From the NCBI GenBank assembly GCA_051294375.1, contig CM119268.1:16945947-17009946 (forward strand): a stretch of 64,000 nt of DNA, written 5' to 3'. Below the pieces are notes generated by a model. The model was not told where the DNA came from, made no database searches, and worked only from the letters and a program-made list of their open reading frames with translations. The stretch comes from Paraspadella gotoi (lineage: Eukaryota > Animalia > Chaetognatha). The stretch's first letter is position 1, and the number at the start of each line of letters is the position of its first letter. Shown piece after piece: positions 4,061-54,207 of this stretch. A program made the position numbers and the translations under genes.

Positions 4061-6092
4061 TTCATCGTGTCGTCAGCTTCCCTCCTCTCTTCCTCCCCCT
4101 GACTCACCAATCGTCATCAGCGTTGCCTCCAAGATCCACTTGGCCTGCAGGTCCATGTCGTGGGAGCAAGTAAGCTTGGCGACGTTGGTGCGATTGCGAA
4201 AGGACCCGTAGTCGACGATTTTGGAAGTGAAGAAGAAGTGGGAATGCATGAGGGCGCCGAGGAAGATGATCAGGGCGAGAGCGAAGCGGGGGCGTTCTTG
4301 GGGGTAGTAGGCGCGGGAGCTGAAAGAAGGGGGGAAGCGATGGGATTGGATCGGTTAATTGGTCGGTTTGTTTGTTTGTTTGTTTGTTAAGTAGGTTTCT
4401 TGATAGTTTGGTTGATAAGCTTTTGTGGTAGTTTGATTTTTTAATTGTTTGTTTGATTGTTTGGATCGTTGATTGCTTAATTTCTTGTTGGTTCTCTGAT
4501 TAGTTGTTTGATTGTTTCATCGCTGGATGGCGGAAGGAAATAACATTATATATTAAGGGAGTGGTCTTTTCATACAATTGAAACATTTTTTGAAATATTA
4601 TACCACTTCATTGATAGGGAAGCCAGGTACTCTGGGTGTGAATAAACTCGACTGTGAGAGAGTCTTGATTAAAAGCTTGCAGGGGCCGGCTATGTCATTA
4701 TCTTGTAAGAGTGATGGTGGCCTTAAACCACCAAAGCCTGTCCAAGTCAGGGGCAAGTTAGCTTATTTATTAAATGAATGGAAATTTTTATATTGGTTGT
4801 ACCAATGTACCATTTTCATAAAAATGTAATGTAAAATCAAGAGAAAAAAACTGAAATGAAAACAACATGAATTTCTTCACCTGATGGGGTAATAGACGGC
4901 GACGAATCTCTCCAGCGAGAGGACGACGATCGTCCACACGGAACTGAACTGGACGCTCGACTCGACGAATTGAACCACCTTGCAATACCACAGAGACACC
5001 AATAGATGGGCGTAGGTGGTGAACTGCTTGGTCAACAGTCTGTACAGCGTTGACCACAGGACGATAGTGTCAAGAATCGCCAGGGCATTCAGGTAAAACG
5101 TGACGCAGAGGGCCTGGAGTGGGACGTCGGGGAAGAGGAAGAAGAAAAAGGGAAATTTAATCGAAATAGGAAAAAATTCAGCAAAAAAATGGAATAAAAA
5201 GAACAAAGGAACAAATATGAGGAACCCAAAAAGAACAGAGTGTGTGGGAGAAAGAGAAAGAGGAAAATAAAACGAAAATATTTATTTTCAAATAGATTTT
5301 ACTCTTAATTTTAAAATAACTGCAAATGAGAGTAAATGACGGTAAAATAAAATATATACGTATACATTATTAACTTAATTTACTGACGAAATTAATGAAA
5401 AAGAAAGTGAAGAATAAAGTTGTGAAAAGGAAGTTGAGGAAAAATTTAAAAAAAGTAAATAAAAAGAAAAAATAAGAAGAATATAATTAAAGACCTTGAA
5501 TCGTTTGGACTGAAGGACGACGAAGGAAACGAGATTCCCCACCGTCCCGAAGAAGATGACGACGAAATAAGCGACGGTGATGAGATCGAAGCCTCTGAAG
5601 GGATTCACGCGACTCGAGTTCGTCGTCGATCGGGAAGAGTTCTCCGCCTCCGCGCCATCTTTTGAGAATCGGGGTTCAGGGTGGCGGGAAGAATGAGAGG
5701 TTTGATTCATGTTATCACTTATGGTAATCGAAGGCAATTGTAAACATCATCTCGGATGACTGAAACCTCATCATCTTTATCATCGTAATTAACATCGTGA
5801 TCATCGTTATCATCATCTCGTTCATCCTCATCATCGTCATCATCATCAGCATCAATTCATCAACATCATCATCATCTCCACCACCTTTTGTCGTCATTGC
5901 CATCGTCATTGCCTCCATCGCAGCAGCCGTCGTTCTGAAAGTCTGATTGACTGATTCTAATCGTCCCATCGTTTGATTGATCGATTCTAATCGCGTGATT
6001 GATTGATTGATAAAATCACACCCGCGTGTCGAAGAGTTCGTCTCGTTTCCCGCCAAAACGGTGGCGGTGACGTTGTCGAAGAAGAGGCTCAT
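1..6092 (-). CDS. Class A (rhodopsin-like) peptide GPCR, FMRFamide/TRH-receptor-like; multi-exon, runs off the window and across gaps
   Basis: Exons with GT-AG ends: N-terminus with many NxS/T sequons from 6092 to TM1 (..FGTVGNLVSFVVL.., donor after 5495); 5113-4881 (FYLNALAILD; LSLERFVAVYYP = TM2-TM3/ERF motif); 4319-4108 (TM4, ECL2 Cys); ~843-711 (SHSINFIMYVI = TM7); candidate helix-8 exon 120-1 (ARRVPGVQFRLAY). The TM5/TM6 exon was not found and may lie in a gap. The junction between the two N-terminal frames (~5890-5720) is unresolved. Confidence 0.85.
845..1114. other. Assembly gap (270 N); further N spacers at 678-702, 1809-1833, 39876-39885, 53512-53521, 59869-59893
   Basis: N runs seen directly; the fixed 25-N and 10-N lengths indicate a scaffolded or gap-filled draft. 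Confidence 0.99.
1879..2853. mobile_element. Non-autonomous inverted-repeat-bounded element (MITE/Helentron-like) with a telomere-like satellite core
   Basis: Left end TTCTAGTT(tggt)TGGCGACTTCGCC is the imperfect inverse of right end GGCGAAATCGCCATAACTAGAA. Four GGCGA-NN-TCGCC palindromes sit near the left end. Internal CCCTAA-based array. Confidence 0.6.
2036..2817. repeat. Higher-order minisatellite: AACCCTAACCCTAA blocks alternating with three recurring ~30 bp spacers
   Basis: Spacer order C-A-B,C-A-B,C-A-B',A'-B',A', then degenerate (AACCCT)n/ctactc units. Confidence 0.9.
4671..4807 (+). mobile_element. Dispersed short repeat, family B (SINE-like 3' part), copy 1
   Basis: Closely similar to 37439-37580. 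Diverged copy at 36465-36574 and tail-only copy at ~45580-45615. Ends in hairpin ATTGGT-TGT-ACCAAT. Confidence 0.8.
4699..4760 (+). ncRNA. Twister-like ribozyme, type-P5 permutation (family B copy; L4 one nt short)
   Basis: P5 TATCTTGT/GCAAGTTA; AA; P2' GAGT; GA; T1 TGG/CCA; P1 tggcct; TAA; P2 ACC; T2 AC/GT; P4 CCTG/CAGG. Confidence 0.6.
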
Positions 6093-17355: not shown

Positions 17356-19791
17356 GCTAACTCACTCTTGTTTCGCGCGTTGATTAATAATTTCATGAAA
17401 ATTATTTTTTAATTATATTTAAATTTTAGTTTCTACTCGGCCCCGACAGGTGGATATCGTAAAGACGTTGGGGGCCTCGGAATCCATCGCCGGGGGCGCG
17501 TTGGGAATCATAGGCGGAGTCATGCTGTTCACCCCTGCAGCTCCGGCCGGCCTTATTATCGGACTTACCGGTAAAGCTACGCAGATTGGAAAATAATCTC
17601 CGTTCGAGACGTTGAGTATGGCACAGACTTTTAGTTTTTAAATTGTATTCAATTAATTAAAAATATCAGAATGCATTTGATTCCGATACGACTTACAAAT
17701 AAATACCTAGTACATTTTGGTAATTAAAGCTGTCGTCTGAAGCTTTTTGTAATTTTACTTACCAAATATTTAAACATCATCGATTTTGTATCAGTTCATC
17801 GTAATGACCGACATTTTCGCGTCTCATTCCTTTCCGTTGTTGTTGTTGTCGTCGTCGTCATCGTTGTCGTCGCTTTCCGGCTTTTGTTATGGCGTTTCCA
17901 TTAATTCTTACGCGAACAGTTGGATTTATGGATTTCATAAACCTTTTTCCGATTTTCCACTTTTTTCTCAGCGTGAACCAATCCAAGGATTTTTGAGAGA
18001 TCTTTTTAGAATTGAGACTCGACTTTCGATGCTGATATCACTTCCCACTTCTTCCTTCCCACTTCTCACATCTCACTTCTCCCAATTCACTTCTCAGGTT
18101 TAGGTCTCGGATTGAAGGGGTCATTGCTCGAAGGAGGCGCCGCGGTCGCCGGCAAAGTCGCCGGAAAATCCGTTCTCAAGGTAAAGTGGGTTTATCAGAG
18201 ACGCGAAGATCTTTCCTTTGTCTTCACGCCCGCGGAGACGAGCGTTCGTGGTTTCACCCAGACGAACGTGAGTTTCCAAGAGAAAAAGTCGGGAATAAAA
18301 ATATGAGACTTTTATTGTACAGCAATCAGAAACTCGTAAATAGGGAGCTTCTTTCAAGCGAAATAGTATCAGTGAGATTTCAAGCGAAAATCTCTCTGAA
18401 AATTGAGGCGGGAGAAAACTGCCCGCGAAAATATGACCGTAAAAAAAGAATTGGCCTAAAAGGGGTGAAAAATGAGTAATCAAGGCTAAATATCTTTAAC
18501 AAGATATATGTTTAGTACCGTTCACATTATGTTTTTATTATTAGATCGAGATTGAGGAACTGAGTGAAAAATGACAAATAGAGAGAGAGCGAGAGAGAGA
18601 GAGAGTGAGAGAGAGAGAGAGGGAGAGGGAGTCCCTTGAGGCTTGAACAATAGTAAAAGTACTACAAATGTTAATATCTACAACAACATTAAGGAATTCG
18701 TTAAACGAACCGAAGACGCGAACATTGGACTGAAAAACTTCGTCGCCATTTTGAGGCGACTCGAAGAAATGGCGGGACGATTGGCAAAAAAGGAACAACA
18801 ACGACGACGACGAAAACAACAGCAGAAGGAAGAACAGTTGAAGGAGCTGACGATTGAGAACAACGAAGGTTCTTGTCACCGTTGGGTGTGTCGATGTGAA
18901 AAAAGGAAAATTTATCTTATCGTGTAAAATTTTGAGTCTACTATGTCGTTACTATATTTTACTTCTTTTTTTTTAAATTGTTGAGATAACAGATATGTTC
19001 AAATAGAAAACAGAAAAAGAGAACGGACGTTAAAGATTAATTGAAAAGGGCGTGCCCACTCAAGCCCGGTTAGCTCAGTCGGTAGAGCACAGGACTCTTA
19101 ATCCTGGGGTCGTGGGTTCGAGCCCCACATTGGGCGCCCTCTTTAAAATAATTCACTTTCTTTGAGATGATTTTTTTAAATTCACCCCGCCTATATACAT
19201 GACAAGAAAAAATCAATAATAATTTTGAATTTAACTCTTATCGCAATCCTACAGAAGACTTTTTTTATATATTTTTTTTACATTGACGCATTCAAAGTGT
19301 TTATCAGTAAATGCAGTCGGAACAGCGGAAAATGAGGACGACAACGGCGAAGACGACGACGACAATGACGATGACGAACCGGACGCCAACACCGACGCCG
19401 GTGATCAACCTACTCGTCGACAGCACGTGATCTTCCTCAAAGTCCTCAACTTCATCGCGACGCTGTGGCTGCGGCGACTGCTGCAGGAGCGGCGGTGCTG
19501 CGGCGGCGATCGTCGCTCGTCTCTCGATTTGTCTGCTGAGGCGGAGGCGGAGCTGGCCGACGTTTTCGGGGACGGAGTTCTGGCCGACATGTGGAAGGGA
19601 GTGCAGGTGAGGGGGTTCGGGAATGAGAAGGAGAGGAAGATAGCCGACTTTAATTCATTGATTAATTTCATAACTGTTTCACATCTTTTTATATAATTTT
19701 TAATTATTTTGTTACATTTCCTATTCTTTTGAGTAAATTTAATTACAATTAGATGATTAATTCTAATTTTTATGTATCACTTCACAATTTA

Positions 19792-24942: not shown

Positions 24943-25359
24943 GAAGGAAGAGAGAGAGAAAAAAAGAGAGAGAGAGAGATAGACAGATTGAAAACTGGTT
25001 TTTCAAGTTGTCATCTGAGCTAAATTCAAGTAGCGGCGAGTGGCAAGTAATTCTTCTCCAAATAAATTAGACAAAAAATTTAAAAAAATGTTTTTGTTGA
25101 AATATTGAATCAAATTCAACAAGCGTCTGTGGCAAAATCGAAGTTAAAGGAATTAACTTCTTTGTCCAAAATAACAACAACGACAAAAAAAAATAGACGC
25201 TATTTAAAAACACTTAAAAAACGATTGTACGTTGAAAAAAGAAAGGAATCTACTACAAAAAAAAAACAAAAAAAAAAAAAGCTACATATAACAAACAAAC
25301 GAAAGAGCGAAAATAAACAAAAAACGTAGGTAATCTAAATCCAGGCAGCCGACGAACCC

Positions 25360-27825
25360 ATGAAGAAATTTGCAGGCATTCCGCTCGACCTTCGAACGAC
25401 GATGGGCAAGAAATTCGGTTGGCGTTGGTCCTTCCTCATCGTCGCCGCCATCGCCGTCGTCTTCGTCCTCGTTGGAATTCCGCGGTCCGCGCTACGCACA
25501 GGAACCGGAATCGCGCTACGCTCCTCCGGCGTCGACGTGGACTTTATGAGGAAGCGACAAGGGCCCGTCGGGATTGTCCGCGGGATAGGAAGAGTGGGTC
25601 AGGGGAGCGGGAAGGTGGAGCGAGGGAGGAAGGAGGAGTCGAAGGAGAGGGAGGGACGACGGAAGTCGGGAGGAGGTGGAGGAGGAGGGGAGGGGTGGAG
25701 GATGGAGAGTGGAGGAGTGGAGCGGATCAGAGGAGCGGCGCGAATCGGAGGAGCGGATTCGTCGAATCGAGCCGAAATGAAGGTTGAGAAAGAAGAGGGA
25801 GGAAAGAAAAAAGGAGGAATATTTGTTCGTCAAGAAGAAAAAAGAATAAAAGGAGAACAAACGTATTTCGGTAAATTAAAAGAAAAAGAAATGACCGATC
25901 ACAAACGAGCGAAAATCTTTGGAGAAATGAACGAGAGGAAATCAAAGCAGACGAAAACATTTGAGGATATTGAGAAACGAACGAAACAAGTGAATGATTT
26001 GCACGACGCATTGGATTCAGCGAAAAAAATGGCGGACGAACAGAGAAAAGATCAGGAAAAGTATTTGGAAGAACTAAAGATACGACGGAAATGGAATGAA
26101 GAGTTGGAGAGAAAGAAGGGATCGATGACGAGTGCAGAAAGATCGAAGATCGAACAAAAGGACAGCGAAAGATTTGAAGCGAGAGAAAGAAAAATGGCCG
26201 AGGAAGACATGAAGAATAAGGAACTACAAAAAGCGAAACAACTAAATAAAATAATTGAAAACAAAGAAAAAACTGATGACACAACCGAACGACAACGACA
26301 ATTGAATAAGTTGGGGGAAGAACAAAGTAAAGGACAGAAAGGAATTAATCAGAAAACTGAAAATCTGAAGAGGAATTACTCTGGAGACTTGTTGGACCAG
26401 CGGAAAATAGGACAACCGTTCACTTATCAAAAAATGAAGCCGCAGATTGGGAAAAAAATGGAAAATGAGCAGTTGAATATGAAAAAGGAATTAATGAAAC
26501 AAGAAAAAGCGGAAAAGAACGGAACCGCATCGGCGGGAGCGAAAAGTAACCAAAAAGATTATCTTCAACAACAACAACAACTAAAAACAACAGAAGTAAT
26601 GAAAACAAATTTACAGCAAGAAGCTACGAAGAAGTGGACGAGGATAAATAAAGGACAAGCGGTTGTCAATAAAGAGCCGATGAATCGTCAAACCCGATTT
26701 CAAAACGAGGAACAGTTGAAGAAAAATACAACGCTTACTACAAAGGCGGGAAGAATAAAATCTGGATCCAAATGGAGCGAAGTGGAAGCTGGTGAAACTT
26801 TGAAAAATAAATTAGCAAAGATGAAGGAAAAAAAGAGTTACAAGGATATATATAACAAAACACGATTTTCTGAACTAAGAACAACTAGAAATGTTACGAA
26901 GCCAAGTTTGAAAGATCAACAAGAACCTTTGCAGCGTCGTTCATATAATCGCAGTCGAATTAATGAGTGGGGAAAAGGGAATCCTAACAAGCAAAGTCGC
27001 GATGGAGAAAGGATGGAGGACAAGCGAATGAAAGAAGATATAAGGCCTAATTTCGCAGCGCAGAACGAAACTGAACAGAAATCAATTGGGCCGACAGCTA
27101 TGAAGGTTAATCAACAAAATTCAATGACAAATGGGTCTAGTCAACTGGCGATCAATCAACGACGGCGACCTCGTCCCAATGTATTTCCAAAACAGGATAA
27201 ATGGCAGAAAAGAGAGAAACCGATCATGATGGATAAAACAAAGAAAAACTTGGAAGACGAAACTTTGAGAGAAAAAAGAAAAGAGGAAAAGCAGAAAATA
27301 AAGAAAGGAACAATCGAAATCGAAAGTGGAGGGAAGCAATTTGAATCTGTAGGAAGGAGCAATCAGAATGAGAAAAAGAAAGAAGAGTTTGGAATCGGAA
27401 GAAGGAAGGAAACTTTGAATAAAGTGGGAGGAATTCAAATAGGAAAAAGAGAGGAAAAATCTGAATTGATAGAGGGAAGTGACAATCAAAATGGGAGAAA
27501 TGAAAGGGTCATAAATATTGAAGGAAAAAAAAAACAATCCGAAGTAAACAACAATCTAAATCAAATGGAGAAAAGAACAATAAAGACTGGGGGAAGACCT
27601 GAGAAATTGGAATTGAAAGAAAGAAATAGCAATCAAAGTTGGAAAAAAAAAATAATAAATAAAATCAGTAAAAGAAGAGACCCGAAGAGCGAAGCAATCC
27701 GAATTGGTGAAAAACAGAGACAGTCTGAAATGGAAGCAGGAATTATGAATAAAAATTGGAAGACGGGAGGATCAATCAAAAGGGGCGAAAAAGCAAGCAG
27801 AAAGCAGAAGAAGCAACCAATTTAA
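25360..27825 (+). CDS. Intronless 821-aa type II membrane protein with long Lys/Glu-rich coiled-coil/disordered ectodomain; function unknown
   Basis: 2.5 kb open frame in AT-rich DNA. Basic N-tail followed by a single TM (FLIVAAIAVVFVLVGI). No recognisable catalytic domain. Confidence 0.7.
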   Translation: MKKFAGIPLDLRTTMGKKFGWRWSFLIVAAIAVVFVLVGIPRSALRTGTGIALRSSGVDVDFMRKRQGPVGIVRGIGRVGQGSGKVERGRKEESKEREGRRKSGGGGGGGEGWRMESGGVERIRGAARIGGADSSNRAEMKVEKEEGGKKKGGIFVRQEEKRIKGEQTYFGKLKEKEMTDHKRAKIFGEMNERKSKQTKTFEDIEKRTKQVNDLHDALDSAKKMADEQRKDQEKYLEELKIRRKWNEELERKKGSMTSAERSKIEQKDSERFEARERKMAEEDMKNKELQKAKQLNKIIENKEKTDDTTERQRQLNKLGEEQSKGQKGINQKTENLKRNYSGDLLDQRKIGQPFTYQKMKPQIGKKMENEQLNMKKELMKQEKAEKNGTASAGAKSNQKDYLQQQQQLKTTEVMKTNLQQEATKKWTRINKGQAVVNKEPMNRQTRFQNEEQLKKNTTLTTKAGRIKSGSKWSEVEAGETLKNKLAKMKEKKSYKDIYNKTRFSELRTTRNVTKPSLKDQQEPLQRRSYNRSRINEWGKGNPNKQSRDGERMEDKRMKEDIRPNFAAQNETEQKSIGPTAMKVNQQNSMTNGSSQLAINQRRRPRPNVFPKQDKWQKREKPIMMDKTKKNLEDETLREKRKEEKQKIKKGTIEIESGGKQFESVGRSNQNEKKKEEFGIGRRKETLNKVGGIQIGKREEKSELIEGSDNQNGRNERVINIEGKKKQSEVNNNLNQMEKRTIKTGGRPEKLELKERNSNQSWKKKIINKISKRRDPKSEAIRIGEKQRQSEMEAGIMNKNWKTGGSIKRGEKASRKQKKQPI

Positions 27826-29178
27826 GGAAAATATAAGGGCAATCGCGAATAAAGAAACAAAAGAGCAACAAAATTGGAAAAAGAAAGGAGCAATCGAAAA
27901 TAAAAAGGGAGAAAAAAGCGTAAAAATAGCAGAGTATGGACGATACAAGTTTCAGATCAAGAAATGAGAGGATGAAATGTTAAATAAATAGAAGGGTCAG
28001 AAGAAAGTAAAGGAAGGACTCTTTTAGTAATATAATAGTTCCAACGAATAAAAAAACTATTACTTTAATTTTACCTCTCTTTCTCTTTTTTGTTTTCTAC
28101 TCAAGTTACTCTACATTTGTCTATTCCGTTGCATTTACTTTTGTTTTATCATTAACTTGTATCATAATTTTTTCACTCACAATGAAAAGCCAGAATATAT
28201 AACTTTTGGAGAATCTATTGTTCCTTTATTCATTGCATTCTTTTCGATCTAATAAAATTCTGACATACGTAATGATTAATCGTTGACGTCTAATTTAAAA
28301 CACTTATTGATTCTAAACATCCAAATTTCGAATTGACGATTTTGCGTCTCAATCTTTCAGTCTCGAGTTCAAGCCCGCGACATTCCGCCTTGAAAAAAAA
28401 AATTAAAAAATTGTGTCTAAAGAAATTCCGTCTTTTATGTATTGATGATTAGAGTAATATCAATTGCTTTTTTAGGAAAAAAAACATTGTCATTTGTCAA
28501 TTTGCCAAATCTTACGAATTTTAGTGTAAAACCGTATTGGTGAAATAAATAAGATAATGTATATTTTGCGAATGAAGAATTTAAATATTTATTTCGCGGA
28601 TTAAATATTAAAATCAAAAGACTGTGGCAACAACAACACGCGACCTTAGAAGATCTCTTTATAAAAGGGAATAAGTCAATAACGCTATTTTCGGTCATTG
28701 ATTCCAAAGTGATTCATTAAGTTAACCCAGGAATGATTTTTCCCCCCAGACCATTTTAAGATTAATTTATCAAATGAGGAAATAATTCCGAGAGATTTCT
28801 GGTGAATCTCGATTGGAAGGAACTCTCCAAGTGGAAAAGGGAGAATCTAGAGGAAACACGACGCAGATCGAGACCAGAGAGAAACCATAAGGGAGATTTT
28901 TGATAAAAAGGAAAAAGGAACAAGAAGGAAAGAATATGTCTTAGAAATTTATCAATTCAAGTCGTACAGTTTCGCTTTTCCTCGAGCGAGAACCCGTTTT
29001 CCAAAATAATATTTTTACTCTCAGCGTAGAGCTACAATTCATTTTCTGTCTTTCTACGTTAATTCTATGCAGTTGATGAGCGGAAATTGTAAGATATAAG
29101 CATAGGTATATTACATAATATATGTAGTCGGGCATTGCCTAGGTTCACCCCGCCAAGAATCCTGACACTTTCAGTTGT

Positions 29179-29400
29179 GACCCGGTGGCTCATTGAGTAA
29201 AGCCATCAGCTCATGACCACTAGGTACCGGGTTCAATCCCAACCCAGTACCTACCCTGCGGGAAGCGTGAGGACGGCCGTAAGCCGCCTTGGGGGCATAG
29301 CAAACCCTCAAGCCTGGTTCCAAGCCCAGGGACCCGTTCCATGGCTGCTAGAGGGGTTTATAGAAGTTACGGACAGTCATCTTCAGCCCACGTAGCGCCT
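29179..29400 (+). mobile_element. tRNA-derived SINE (family A) carrying a twister-like domain
   Basis: A-box-like GGTGGCTCATTGAG and B-box GGTTCAATCCC, followed by a GC-rich structured body. No intact tRNA cloverleaf. Confidence 0.75.
29258..29337 (+). ncRNA. Twister-like ribozyme, type-P5 permutation (best-preserved copy)
   Basis: P5 GCGGG/CCCGT; P2' GCGT; GA; T1 GGA/TCC; P1 cggccg; TAA; P2 GCC; T2 GC/GC; P3 CTTGGGGG/CCCTCAAG; P4 CCTGG/CCAGG enclosing the 8-nt loop TTCCAAGC. Confidence 0.72.
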
Positions 29401-29607
29401 TATCCACATATATCATAGCGCGAGAAGAGAAAGTGAGTAATCGCGAGGGACATGGGGTTATTCCCAAAGATACCTAAGGTCGTTTGAAGTGATTTCCGGT
29501 CTGTTTTACCCTTTTTTAGAATAAAGGAATTCGAGGGAATGAGGAATAAGCGTTTTACTTTGAATATAATTGAGTTCTTCCACTCCAACTGGGTTAACAA
29601 ACCCGTC

Positions 29608-43629
<14,022 letters not shown>

Positions 43630-45050: not shown

Positions 45051-45270
45051 TTCCGTTCACGATTTCCTGTGACGTGAATCGTTGAGACGCGAGAATAAAT
45101 TTAGTTTTGTTTGAGGAAAATCTAAGCGAAGGAATTAAAACTACCTCGCTTTTTATTCGTCCATTATTTTATTTAATTTCGTGACGGACATATAAACTTT
45201 ATATTTAAAGGACTTCATGTCGCGAAAAAAAAATCCAGTATGGTGGACTAAAATCCACCAACCGTTCATC

Positions 45271-45460
45271 GGTGGCCATTGGTGCCGCAGGCAAGTCATT
45301 CGCCTCCCAACTCAAAGGTCCGGGGTTCTAGCCCGGTGACCGCCTAGCAATTAAGAGGGACGGGACGCTTAACCCGCCTCTAACTCGGTGTTCCAGCCTG
45401 ATCCGAAGCTCAGGGACTGCTTATATTGAACGGTTCTGTCACTAACACATGACAATAATT
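45271..45460 (+). mobile_element. tRNA-derived SINE (family C) carrying a twister-like domain
   Basis: tRNA-like head 45271-45344 (acceptor-like GGTGGCCA/TGACCGCC, T-arm CCGGG-GTTCTAG-CCCGG), immediately followed by a structured body. Confidence 0.75.
45347..45420 (+). ncRNA. Twister-like ribozyme, type-P5 permutation (family C)
   Basis: P5 GCAATT/GACTGC; AA; P2' GAGG; GA; T1 CGG/CCG; P1 gacgct; TAA; P2 CCC; T2 GC/GC; imperfect P3; P4 CCTGA/TCAGG with loop TCCGAAGC. Confidence 0.7.
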
Positions 45461-48400
45461 ACTGTCTCTTCACCATTTTTAAAATATTTATATTAATCTC
45501 AGTTGCTAAAGGAACAATAGCTGGTAAATTGTCATAAAATTTTATTTTTTATGATCTGGTATTATATAAAATGAAAATGAATGGATAATTTTTATATTGG
45601 TTGTACCAATTTCATAAACCTTTTTTATATTTAAGTTCATTTGTTTAAAGATACGAAAGCACGAACAATCAAAAATGTGCTGCCATCTCTCAGAAACTGA
45701 CTAAATTTTGATGAGGGCCCTAAAAACAAAAGTCAAGTTAAAATATTTTCTAATTTAAGATAAAAAGTCGCTAATTAAATAAACTTCAATTTCATAAGAA
45801 TACTCTGTTACCTTTTTGTTTGCAGGTTTCAAGGTATTCAAATTGTATTCGCAAAGGATGTATACTTGTATATACATTAAGGCGGAACAAGTTAAAAACT
45901 AAGAGTTCTGTAATATAAATAACTTTTAAATTTAAAAAAAATTGATATGATGTATAGTTGATAACATACCATGATGGAAAAAAAAATTGTCCCAGTTACT
46001 TTCCAGTTATTTTTCAGCATTTTAATGTAAGAATCAAAAAATAAATTTAATTCATATATCAAAAAAGAGTAATATTTAAAATACGTTAATGCTGTAGATG
46101 TTAGAGAATATCATTTTTAAATTGTAAAGTATCACTAAAAGTTATGAGGTTTTGGGTAACCTTTCTGTAAGCAAAGTTATCATTTTTATTTACCTTTGGA
46201 TGTATTATCAGAATCAAGTATCAAACAAATTCAAAAATAAAAAATAAAAAATTTTGTTGAAGTGAAAAACAATGCAGCAACAACTCAAGCCTGGTTTAAT
46301 TTTTAAAGGATCAATCTTTTTCACTGCTTGCTAAGGACTATTTTTTACCCCAAATCTGATAAAAAATATCATGTCAGAGATATAATATTAAAAACAATGT
46401 GAGTAGTCCTCTTAATAAAAAAAAAGTGAAAACAGTTAGAGACAATCTATGCATTGAATAATTTTATGCTGTTAAGAAATAATCATTTTATTCAGTCATA
46501 TTACCTATTTATTATTTATTATTATTTATTAACCAAAAATATATTTAACAATAAAATTAACTGACTTTTCCAAACCGCAACAATTCTTTTTTCCATCATG
46601 GTAAAAACATTTAAAGTTTATCGTATTACTATAAATCATAACAAATTTTTTTTTCAAATTCAAATAAAGCTTAAAAAATAAATAAAAAATATTATTACAA
46701 GATTTTCAAATTTTTATGTTTTATTGGTTAAAATTAGCAAAAACTAAAAAAATTATGGTATAATGATAAAGATGATGATTTTTAAGGGTTTTTTCCTTAT
46801 TTAACCCACTTATCATCGAAATATTAAAAAATGAATTATACATTGGTGAAAACACTTTTTATGGGCTAAATCCGTTCTTAAAATAATTTTTTTACAAAAA
46901 AATGTTTTCATTGCCTATGCATAAATATGCTTAACTAGTTAAAAAAGTGATTGTAAATATTGATTCAGTATATAAAGGACAAATGAATTTTATATTACAG
47001 AACTCCTAATGAAAAAAAGTGATCAATTTTGGCCCGCCTAAATATACGTATAAAATATTGTTATTGCATTTCGCTAACTACATGAACGTCTCGTTTTCTG
47101 CCTTACGAAGCTCCCATAATTTTAAAAGGTTTGATGCACTTGGCGTTTATTTCTTTCTGATATTATCAGTCGGGACTACTAGACACAATATTCAAAGGCC
47201 ACTGCTTAAGAAGTACTCGTAAAACAAATTGACAAATCGCTGAGTTTTTAGGCTGAAGGGACACAATTTTTTTTTGGTTTTTGGTTTTGTTTTATCTCGA
47301 AACAAAGTTTTTTTGGGGGGAAAGAGTGAGAAAGAGATACGAAAAAAACGAGGAGAGTAAATCATGGTACAATATGACATAAAGGGACCATGAATGAAAA
47401 CAATTATATTCCTAAAAGCACACACAACATGGAACCGTAAAAAACGAATAAGTTAAAAACAAGATTGTCATCGTTCAATAATTTTAAGAGTCAAAATTTC
47501 AAAATTTATTTAAACGTTAATTTATTCTTATTTGAAAACTCCTTTCTTTCCAAATTAGACGTTTTTTTACAAAAAAAAAATTGAACGATAACGCGTGTTA
47601 GAAATCGACACAAAAATAATTTATTGAAAAAAAACGTTCAACGATCTACTTATGAACAATATTTCTCTCGGAAAAACCAATGAATGAATTTTTTTCATTC
47701 ATTACAATTTTTTCTATTCACACAAAAAATGCCGCGTAAAAATATCGCGTGAATCACGCTGTGATATGACGCAGAAAAAATACACATAAAGACACAGAGA
47801 CACGAAAAACTCTTGACTCTCTCGAATTAATTAATTAATTAACTTATCATGTTTATGATATATTCTCGTCTTCATCAAACAATGAAGGACGTAGTTAAAA
47901 CAGGTAAAGTGGGGGAATATTTTCATAAGTTAAATATATATATATATATTCATCTCAGTATGTAAACAACATTAACAACAGTAACAACAGAGAACAGTAT
48001 GAACGATATGACGAGGTTTTTGAAAATTGAAAGGAGTCCCAACAAAAGATAGTGGGATCTCTTTACAAAGTTATACTGCAAAACGTGATCCGGAAATGGG
48101 TCAGAAAATAAAAGAGCGAGAGACTGAGCGGAGAGGAGAGAGACAGAGGAGAGAGAGAGAGGAGAGAGAGGAGGAGAGAGAGCGAGCGGAGGGAGAGAGA
48201 GAGAGATGAGATGAGATGGATGGGGACGAAGGGAATCGGAGAGATGAGCGAGAGCAGATAGAGAAGAGGAGGGAGAGAGGAGGGGAAAAGGAGCGAGTGA
48301 TGAGATTGGAAGAAGAAAGACGGAAGGAGAGAGGAGAGGGAGAGGAGGAGAGACGAGAGGAAGAGAGGGAGGGTTGGGAGAGGGAGAAGAGAGGGAGACG

Positions 48401-52718: not shown

Positions 52719-54207
52719 CATTTGCAAGTACGTTTTCTTCAATATATGACTTTTTTGAGTAATTTATAAACTTAAATTTCCTAATGTAACTAACTCCTAA
52801 TTACTAGCCATTAACTTACCTACAAGACTTGAGGTAAGTCCTGATCCTTTTCCTCGCCCGATCATGAAATTCGGGGAACTGGCGATTGCAAGAGTCGATG
52901 ATGGCTTGGATTTTCTCCTTCGGTTGCTTGGAGATCGGGACGCAACGATCGAGGTTTTCGTCCACGAAGAGGCGGACGAACATCTGGGGGGGGGGCGATA
53001 TGAGAAAAAGTGGGAGTTGGATGAAAATTAAGGAAAAAGGAAAATTTAGGAAAACAACGTAAAAATAAAGAAAGGCGGGGAAAAAAGATAGAAAGGTAAA
53101 CAAACTAGAAACAAAATAATCAGCAAACTAAAAAAGGATTAAAAAAAAAGAAAGGTAAATTATAGAAAAGAAAAGGAAAAGGATAAAGACAATAAGCGAC
53201 TAACGTTAAAAGCCTTGAGCCTCTCCGAATCGAATCCGTGGCCGGGAGGAAGTTTATCTTCGTCTTCGTCGTCGTCTCCATCGTCGTCTTCAACCTTGAC
53301 GGCTGCGGCTTGCAGCAAAGAATCTATGCCGCAAACGGGCGTCGATGATGCGGTGCCGTTGACGCAAATTGGCGCGGCGCCGCAAGCACCTGGGGAGCCG
53401 GCGTTGCCGTTTATACGGCGCCATCCGTCGACGTGATTGACCGACGATTGGTATATTGCGGCGCTCGGGGCGTCGATGGGATTGTCCGGCGTCGAAATCA
53501 CTGTGCGAAGCNNNNNNNNNNGAGAGAAAAGATAGTGCATTCAACGAATGGAACGGAATTGATGGAACATGAGAAGAGAAAAAAAAAGATTGGAATAAAA
53601 AATTAACACATACTCTCTCTCTCTCTTTTCTTTTTTTTACTTTTTCCCTCAAAACATGGAGACAGAGATTGAGACAGAGATATTTTTTATTTAAGATTAA
53701 CTTGTATTGCTTAAAAATGTAACATTTATTGACAAAATATCTGGCAAGGAAAAAATTAGGCCTGACAAACATTAAAATAGTCACATAGCCTATATCTGAT
53801 AGCATCTGTGATAAATCCACGACATCATCATTGTTATCAAACTTTCAAAAAGTAAGTTCTCCCTTTTGAACTCACCCTTCCGGCTTCTTCTTCCGTCATC
53901 TTCCTCTTCCTCCCATTCCTCGTCGTTGTCAGGCCTTTTGTTTCTCTCGTTTTTTCTCCGCAAGGGGCGTTGAGATCTTCGCTTTTGGCGGCGTCCTCGT
54001 CTCCGCCGCTCGGATTGACGTTGGCGTTGACGGCGTTGATGATCGCGGCGACGGCGGCGGTGGCGGCGGCGGTGGCGGCGCCGTCGTGCCCGTTGACGGC
54101 GTTGTTACCGCCCCGGGCGTCGCTCGCCGGGCAACTGACGATCTCGCCGCACAGTCCCGCCAAATTTTCGCGAGGACTCTGCGGCGGCATCGTCGGCCGC
54201 GATTTGA

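Follow-up and report, generated by a model that had tools for sequence, protein, structure and literature searches.

What kind of mobile element would set a tRNA-like head directly before a predicted self-cleaving RNA, and what part would that RNA play in its replication? These questions are raised by a repeat in a 64,000-nucleotide stretch of Paraspadella gotoi DNA (contig CM119268.1, positions 16,945,947 to 17,009,946; hereafter the window, within which all positions are numbered). A preliminary description had placed the repeat at 45271-45460 and called it a tRNA SINE with a twister-like ribozyme module, the second such element after one at 29.2 kb. Here the repeat is termed family 2, the 29.2-kb element family 1 and a further group with the same module family 3 (Table 1).

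Table 1. Coordinates of the features of family 2 and of related copies in the window
Feature	Position	Strand	Basis or remark
Family 2, whole element; likely solo LTR, ends TA...CA	45239-45472	+	contig pile-up
Probable 4-bp target-site duplication, left copy CCAG	45235-45238	+	three of four bases as in 45473-45476
Probable target-site duplication, right copy CCAT	45473-45476	+	
Leader (U3-like), with 7-bp hairpin 45241-47/45254-60 and 5' strand of long-range helix 45260-68	45239-45271	+	family depth
tRNA-like segment, likely internal Pol III promoter; acceptor-like stem, T arm, B-box-like motif	45272-45344	+	
Predicted P5-permuted twister-type fold; P5 45346-51/45416-21, P2 45373-75 with 45358, 45357 and 45355	45346-45421	+	
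Twister core strands: L1 3' strand (general-base G 45359); L4	45359-63; 45402-09	+	
Pseudoknots T1; T2	45361-63/45403-05; 45376-77/45408-09	+	
Further stems P3; P4	45379-85/45389-95; 45397-401/45410-14	+	
6-nt linker at the place of P1; self-complementary with the family majority letter at 45365, broken in the window copy	45364-45369	+	
Predicted cleavage site U^A	45370-45371	+	place in twister model
3' strand of 9-bp leader:downstream helix	45427-45435	+	9/9 pairs
Family 1 (29.2-kb element), likely solo LTR, TG...CA, TATA/TATA duplication	29123-29408	+	6,638 X1 contigs, loose ends before 29123 and behind 29408
Family-1 twister variant, predicted cut 29280/29281	29258-29337	+	
Family-3 copy, same twister variant without P3, general-base G at 37481	37436-37582	+	
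Further family-3 copies	about 4668-4806; 36457-36580		
Family-3 tail only	45575-45618		

A predicted permuted twister fold next to the tRNA-like segment

Positions 45346-45421 fit a P5-permuted twister, for which self-cleavage is predicted. The preliminary description had put the twister-like core within 3 nt of the tRNA-like head, and the two do lie that close: 1-2 nt separate the segment from stem P5, and the predicted cut falls 26 nt downstream of the segment. Its proposed cut between 45370 and 45371 is likewise retained in the model, where the U^A step occupies the twister cleavage position. We number the fold by the O. sativa twister scheme, with G45 and A7 placed as in PMC5408937.

Eight of eight conserved L1 and L4 positions, general acid and base that were checked were present in both full copies (family 1 and family 2), in which P2, T1, T2, the 15-19 pair and P4 were also unbroken. 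Across the three families, the T1 pair 27-47 reads G-C, C-G and A-U, pair 25-49 reads C-G, U-A and C-G, pair 13-31 reads G-C, G-C and A-U, and pair 9-44 reads C-G, G-U and A-U. A MAFFT alignment of four copies paired 29 of 29 cells with three pairs changed on both sides, and 2 of 500 shuffles reached its covariation score, a figure that comes from a small sample of four sequences and is not a probability. Slid registers of this alignment paired at 12-58% only. A register using GAGGG (45355-59) as the L1 strand was rejected, as it leaves P2 without a partner, and MAFFT, unaided, chooses the other one. The recurrence of one ribozyme-like module in sequence-distinct tRNA-headed repeats, as first described, is borne out by twister positions and pairs kept across three families. 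The scant primary similarity to the 29.2-kb element is also confirmed, with blastn aligning only 26 nt at 81% identity, the P4/L4 part.

The module stands out from chance. Two descriptors, both written with the copies already in view, were run on the window: one of general twister positions scored the family-2 copy 23 of 23, the 29.2-kb copy 22.5 and the copy at 37481 22, the next real match in the window reaching 21 and none exceeding 21.5 in eight shuffled windows, and a stricter one gave two matches in the window versus three across 30 shuffles. Rfam misses the twister variant of these families. It returned no twister match for the family-2 window copy at E<=10, and its Twister-P5 model gave 17.1 bits (E 0.28) for the 29.2-kb element and 20.6 bits (E 0.019) for the copy at 37478-37520, the gathering score being 37.6.

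P2 of the family-2 copy comprises three pairs and a bulge, compared with four pairs in a standard twister, and there is no P1 hairpin, the 6 nt between the L1 strand and the cut being too short to fold. Nested-only folding of the window copy was no better than that of shuffles (z -0.7 to 0.3). Twister P1 is dispensable in vitro, and T1 consists of three Watson-Crick pairs and an A-A pair (PMC5408937); natural twisters tolerate imperfections in P1 and P2, but no pseudoknot mismatches (PMC11662667).

Pattern scans beyond the window returned one locus in viral contigs and 14 in metagenome contigs, which are ordinary twisters or chance matches; none of them lay with a tRNA and none showed similarity past P4/L4. 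Ordinary twisters occur on phage and metagenome contigs at L001 588-641, L006 742-796, L008 788-841, L011 806-862 and L013-L015, up to three per 1.6 kb, and in this set UUCC in L4 goes together with GAGGA in L1, which confirms pair 25-49. A 12-nt stretch spanning the predicted cut (45367-45378) recurs in two LTRs, those of Ajax-1_NGe and Ajax-1_LiLo, with no P4/L4 behind it; this match is probably due to chance.

Extent, abundance and decay of the repeat

Family extents and majority letters were derived from contigs of four of the eleven listed sequencing runs, aligned to the family-1 and family-2 window copies. Family 2 is a high-copy repeat, in agreement with the multi-copy status expected of it: 11,776 contigs of run X1, which comes from the same organism, aligned to the element, and summed X1 depth was 1.4-5.8 million over 45246-45469 versus 218-311 in the flanks, a measure that is not copy number and supports 'high copy' only. 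Loose ends of X1 contigs define a family length of 234 bp with both ends fixed and no common tail. Among the loose ends listed, 125 contigs end before 45239, 51 before 45238 and 23 before 45237 on the left, and 203 end behind 45472 and 35 behind 45473 on the right. The interval 45271-45460 of the preliminary description therefore lies inside the element but is 32 nt short on the left and 12 nt short on the right of the family, 45239-45472.

The window copy is a decayed family-2 member, so judged because five modelled pairs and the linker palindrome are broken relative to the family majority. It departs from that majority at 11 positions, six of them in modelled pairs and a seventh in the linker palindrome, and all five broken pairs are restored by the majority letter. 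With majority letters 54 of 54 modelled family-2 pairs close, versus 49 in the window copy; P3, P5 and the acceptor stem were drawn with these letters in view, which makes 54/54 no independent test. In the leader, the hairpin closes 7/7 pairs and the helix with the downstream strand all nine, position 45260 being common to both.

The tRNA-like head

The head has an acceptor-like stem (45272-78/45337-43), a T arm (45320-36) and a B-box-like motif, GGTTCTAGCC, at 45324, which deviates from the B-box consensus. Neither ARAGORN nor Rfam called 45272-45344 as a tRNA. Its CU-CCC-AA loop presumably points to tRNA-Gly. We regard the segment as a likely Pol III promoter inside an LTR. No run of four T occurs inside either LTR, as represented by the window copies of families 1 and 2.

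Run X9, which is only guessed to be RNA, showed a fall in depth across the cut site resembling that of X1. CpG-type minor letters were considered as a sign of expression (they are rarer in X9 than in X1; at 45405, for example, 1.8% versus 11.5%) and rejected, as contigs lose rare variants at lower depth. The acceptor-like stem kept by family 2 is 7 bp long and might be recognised by RNase P or Z, whereas family 1 has a long hairpin in its place, an extension of the T-arm region at 29220-29255. Elsewhere in the window, an unbroken tRNA-Lys(CTT) gene occupies 19064-19136, and 45 nt downstream of it, 15 nt (19181-19195) match the leader of a subfamily of family 1 that is known from loose ends.

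Ends, flanks and the SINE label

A SINE would begin at its tRNA-derived head, whereas family 2 starts at 45239 and its tRNA-like stem begins 33 nt inside this left end. Instead of a variable poly(A), simple-repeat or LINE-derived tail, the element has a fixed end at 45472 and loose ends without a common tail, and the long, variable target duplication of SINEs was lacking at two loci. The family-2 copy has ends TA...CA flanked by CCAG and CCAT (3/4 bases alike), and the family-1 copy has ends TG...CA flanked by TATA on both sides (4/4, within a TA-rich run). No shared words of at least 8 nt were found near the ends of these two window copies.

A polypurine tract, AAAGGGGGGAT, closes the consensus built from the 51 X1 contigs with a loose end before 45238 (agreement 0.41) and resembles the ends of the internal regions of Helenus elements. 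The tract is absent from the other loose-end rows shown, which are plain A/T, and was not visible in the X9 row at the same position (13 contigs). On the right, a single mosaic contig of depth 2.1 from run X10, another organism's run, passes 45472 into TTGGTGAGCCCGAC, 13 of 14 letters of which match the start of Helenus-2_SyJa-I; a PBS was not visible in the X1 consensus behind 45472 (203 contigs). For family 1, record 10 of run X11 reads LTR 3' end, 162 letters and LTR again on the same strand (about 120 nt internal), and one X1 contig has a G-run directly before the LTR start. No two-LTR, full-length copy of family 2 was seen in the contigs examined, and the window offered no recognisable internal region of PPT or PBS type, its pattern matches being one with three mismatches and three with two. 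The left end of family 2 is TA, as against TG in all Helenus LTRs of the supplement portion examined.

Together, sharp ends, no tail, no long duplication, a 33-nt leader and PPT-, PBS- and 4-bp-TSD-type signals led us to abandon the SINE label. We consider it quite probable that family 2 is the solo LTR of a Helenus-like, non-coding miniature LTR retrotransposon. Because of the same ends, leader and signals, its replication partner is likely to be a Gypsy-type LTR element and no LINE. A Helitron or DNA transposon was rejected, as terminal inverted repeats are missing and a PPT is present. On this reading, tRNA-headed repeats classed as SINEs can be solo LTRs.

Three families and one module

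The preliminary description had left open whether the module was an ancient shared domain or had been captured repeatedly by different elements. In all three families the P2 strand has 3 nt and a bulge, a palindromic linker of 6 nt stands where P1 would be, and the fold is P5-permuted; P3, P5, the linker sequence and the head differ between them. Because these shared traits are unusual, descent of one module fits better than repeated capture of unrelated twisters, which favours the former of the two proposals. Family 1 also has a leader:downstream helix at the same place, of unrelated sequence (9/11 pairs with majority letters).

Several further observations concern the relatives of family 2. 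Family-3 copies end in TTTCA or TTTTA followed by TA (4/4 copies), and the copy at 4.6 kb may have a degenerate tRNA-like head, as 4624-4630 pairs with 37452-37458 of another copy. Positions 45706-45750 may hold a strongly decayed family-3 ribozyme remnant, with a score (19.5) inside the shuffle range. A biofilm metagenome (run X11) contains a sister version of family 1 with fixed differences; two of these, at 29259 and 29308, preserve or strengthen pairing in P5 and P3, and 29266 is the P2 bulge. Apart from repeats, the window contains a NOL4 exon (52819-52986, minus strand; 86-95% identical to relatives including insect, lancelet, fish and barnacle), rhodopsin-family receptor exons (4880-5746, minus strand) and an 828-codon open frame (25339-27822, plus strand) without a Pfam match.

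A palindromic linker and a competing hairpin

Family 1 and two of the three family-3 copies have perfectly palindromic linkers, the third copy matching at 4/6 positions, and with the majority letter the family-2 linker is self-complementary with G-U ends. The hexamers of the three families all differ in sequence. Among GC-rich hexamers in the window, 259 of 12,757 (2.0%) are perfect palindromes. Hammerheads with palindromic loops cut as dimers and spare monomeric circles (PMC4209133). By analogy, the palindromic linker suggests that the twister would cut as a dimer of the 5' and 3' LTR copies, with P1 made between copies.

Single-copy, nested-only folding, in which pseudoknots lie outside the model, predicted a competing hairpin over the cut site with probability 0.77-0.99 and P2 with a probability near 0. 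The hairpin was predicted with and without the leader, giving no leader-dependent switch. When two family-1 copies were cofolded, an 8-bp linker duplex displaced the hairpin, whereas it stayed on cofolding of two family-2 window copies; the cofold dimer energies are not specific. The hairpin was rejected as a conserved structure, its register not being alike in families 1 and 2. The preliminary description had proposed a cleavage assay on 45340-45425; this fragment of the window copy alone would probably not cut, even if the family is active, because of the decay of this copy and the predicted requirement of the fold for a second one.

A proposed cycle and its rivals

In the cycle we propose, transcription of a full-length copy by Pol III would begin in its 5' LTR, near 45272, and would read through, because the LTR has no run of four T. 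The full transcript would carry two ribozymes, one in each LTR, whose palindromic linkers would pair and supply the missing P1, and both would cut at U^A. The resulting cut-to-cut monomer would have no terminal redundancy; its ends, clamped by P5 and the leader:downstream helix, would be closed into a circle by a host tRNA ligase. A single-copy circle would fold the competing hairpin over its cut site and stay uncut. Reverse transcription of the circle, starting at the PBS, and integration with a 4-bp duplication would then fall to a Gypsy-type partner, in line with the model for plant retrozymes. Plant LTR retrozymes form cut-to-cut circles and have been proposed to be copied as circles (PMC4918200), and RtcB ligates animal retrozyme RNA (PMC7229834). 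The P5 permutation would suit such an LTR-to-LTR cycle, as the catalytic G upstream of the cut is kept at the other end of the monomer; a SINE or a LINE 5' end would lose this G in each round. Taken as a whole chain, from the solo LTR of a miniature LTR element with a tRNA-like promoter, through a P5-permuted twister active only in pairs, to a circle copied by a Gypsy-type partner, we rate this account at slightly below an even chance.

Two rivals keep the LTR element and change the role of the RNA. One, which we regard as unlikely, has the twister cutting as a monomer, mainly in the 3' LTR, whose leader would be part of the transcript; there it would set only the RNA 3' end and leave replication to ordinary R-region strand transfer. 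The 9-bp leader:downstream helix, possible only in the 3' LTR copy of the RNA, agrees with this, as do the unrelated helix at the same place in family 1, the lack of a Pol III terminator in the LTR and the cleavage of twisters without P1 (PMC5408937); it leaves unexplained why three different linkers are all palindromes, and the competing hairpin, predicted with and without the leader, also speaks against it. The other, also unlikely though slightly less so, is an ordinary Helenus-type TRIM whose LTR holds an inactive twister relic or a fold with a structural role in packaging or RNA dimerisation, self-cleavage having no part in replication. In LTR elements, RNA dimerisation is another use of palindromic loops. 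The Rfam matches, absent or below threshold, the short P2 and the strong competing hairpin point the same way, and known Helenus elements need no ribozyme (PMC10886601). Such a relic or structural fold is hard to reconcile with the conservation of the general-base G, the U^A-A and the two pseudoknots, compensatory changes included, in three families that have almost no other sequence in common.

The remaining rivals assign the repeat to another replication system. It could be a non-autonomous element reliant on Penelope-like (Naiad-type) elements, with a permuted twister from their pseudo-LTR and only incidental LTR-like signals. Animal hammerhead retrozymes have been linked to Penelope-like elements (bioRxiv 2026.07.22.740005), but animal non-LTR retrozymes are tandem repeats without PBS or PPT and with longer duplications (PMC7229834), whereas fixed ends, a PPT and 4-bp duplications mark the dispersed copies here, and we find this reliance quite improbable; a Naiad origin of the twister module would be compatible with the proposed circle-based LTR cycle too. 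Least credible to us, and very improbable, is the SINE reading, in which a tRNA SINE would have acquired a twister as its middle body from a LINE, such as from an RTE 5' UTR. RTE 5' UTRs do supply SINE middle bodies (PMC5786205) and RTE elements do carry 5' twisters (PMC8501958). Against it stand the absence of a tail, the 3' end fixed at CA, the 33-nt leader and the lack of a long duplication by the ends. Moreover, the cut of the RTE twister lies close to its 5' end, and nothing but the P1 5' strand precedes it (PMC8501958), whereas the strand with the catalytic G lies upstream of the cut here, and an active ribozyme would behead a SINE, as argued by Kojima 2018 (PMC5786205).

Returning to the proposed cycle of paired cutting and circle copying, a broader reading is that one animal lineage of miniature LTR retrotransposons, with at least three diverged families in one genome, reached the retrozyme life cycle independently and with other parts. 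These would be a tRNA-derived Pol III promoter in the LTR and an obligate-dimer twister, whose palindromic P1 forms only when the 5' and 3' LTR of one transcript pair and whose circular RNA product a Gypsy-type partner copies; we put this forward tentatively, as a possibility somewhat short of even.

Comparison with known systems

The literature searched, which lay largely outside subscription journals, Repbase and Dfam, yielded no report of twisters in LTRs or tRNA-headed repeats, and within it we found no description of a tRNA-like promoter and a predicted pair-dependent twister in one repeat. A search for further twister permutations found none, in the part of that report examined (PMC10085705).

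A close match in overall organisation is Helenus (TRIMp3; Kojima 2024, PMC10886601), which has short LTRs with an internal tRNA-like A/B-box, as in family 2, and to whose 4-bp duplication in animals, Gypsy-type PBS and PPT, short internal region and many solo LTRs the putative LTR signals of families 1 and 2 would correspond. In the Helenus LTRs examined, the tRNA-like part ends within a few tens of nucleotides of the LTR end, whereas in family 2 this distance is about 128 nt, with the twister fold following. No ribozyme is reported for Helenus: the word 'twister' is absent from the examined text of the Helenus paper, and the strings ccaagccc and ccgaagc are absent from the examined supplement, in which line breaks could hide a few.

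Type-P5 twisters (RF02684; PMC5408937) share with our families the strand order P2-3', L1-3', cut, P2-5', T2, P4/L4, the general base G and acid A, and the T1 and T2 pairs; phage members and family 1 both have a 5-bp P4 and a U-A pair at 25-49. Our families differ from type P5 in the presence of P3 and P5 stems (P3 being absent from family 3), the missing P1 hairpin (replaced by a 6-nt palindrome), the three-pair, bulged P2, scores below the Rfam gathering score, and T1 pair 27-47 and T2 pair 13-31, which are swapped in some families. A twister in an animal retroelement has a precedent in the T-variants of the RTE element Perere-3 (PMC8501958), which is non-LTR, has its cut at the element's 5' end, takes a P1 strand from the host target site and has no tRNA head. 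Theta ribozymes of gut phages (PMC10879173) are self-cleaving RNAs beside a tRNA, as here, but of an HDV-like class and in phages.

The palindromic linker recalls the dimeric minimal hammerheads of Penelope-like elements and animal non-LTR retrozymes, in which a palindromic loop replaces a missing stem; these differ in ribozyme class and in their tandem or pseudo-LTR context without PBS or PPT (PMC4209133, PMC7229834). Rfam scans of our elements gave no hammerhead match, and the motif is twister-type. According to the sources as examined, LTR retrozymes are plant elements that carry type III hammerheads, LTR, PBS and PPT are missing from animal retrozymes (PMC7761336, PMC7229834, bioRxiv 2026.07.22.740005), and twisters are tied to the 5' ends of RTE elements (PMC8501958). 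If the proposed cycle is true, family 2 would be without precedent in the literature searched, both as a retrozyme-like LTR element of an animal and as a natural twister that depends on dimerisation. The presence of a twister in an animal LTR element would show that circle-based LTR retrotransposition arose more than once and that ribozyme classes are interchangeable, and a twister needing a second copy would be a simple built-in sensor for full-length transcripts.

A functional parallel is provided by plant LTR retrozymes (Cervera et al. 2016, PMC4918200), which are non-coding, carry a self-cleaving motif in each LTR, and have a 4-bp duplication, PBS, PPT, solo LTRs and a cut-to-cut monomer without R redundancy. 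They are described from plants only and have type III hammerheads, LTRs of 300-400 bp and, in the examined text, no tRNA-like promoter, whereas family 2 is an animal element with a predicted twister fold and a tRNA-like segment. Family 2 may share the retrozyme mode of action although the published definition of a retrozyme does not cover it.
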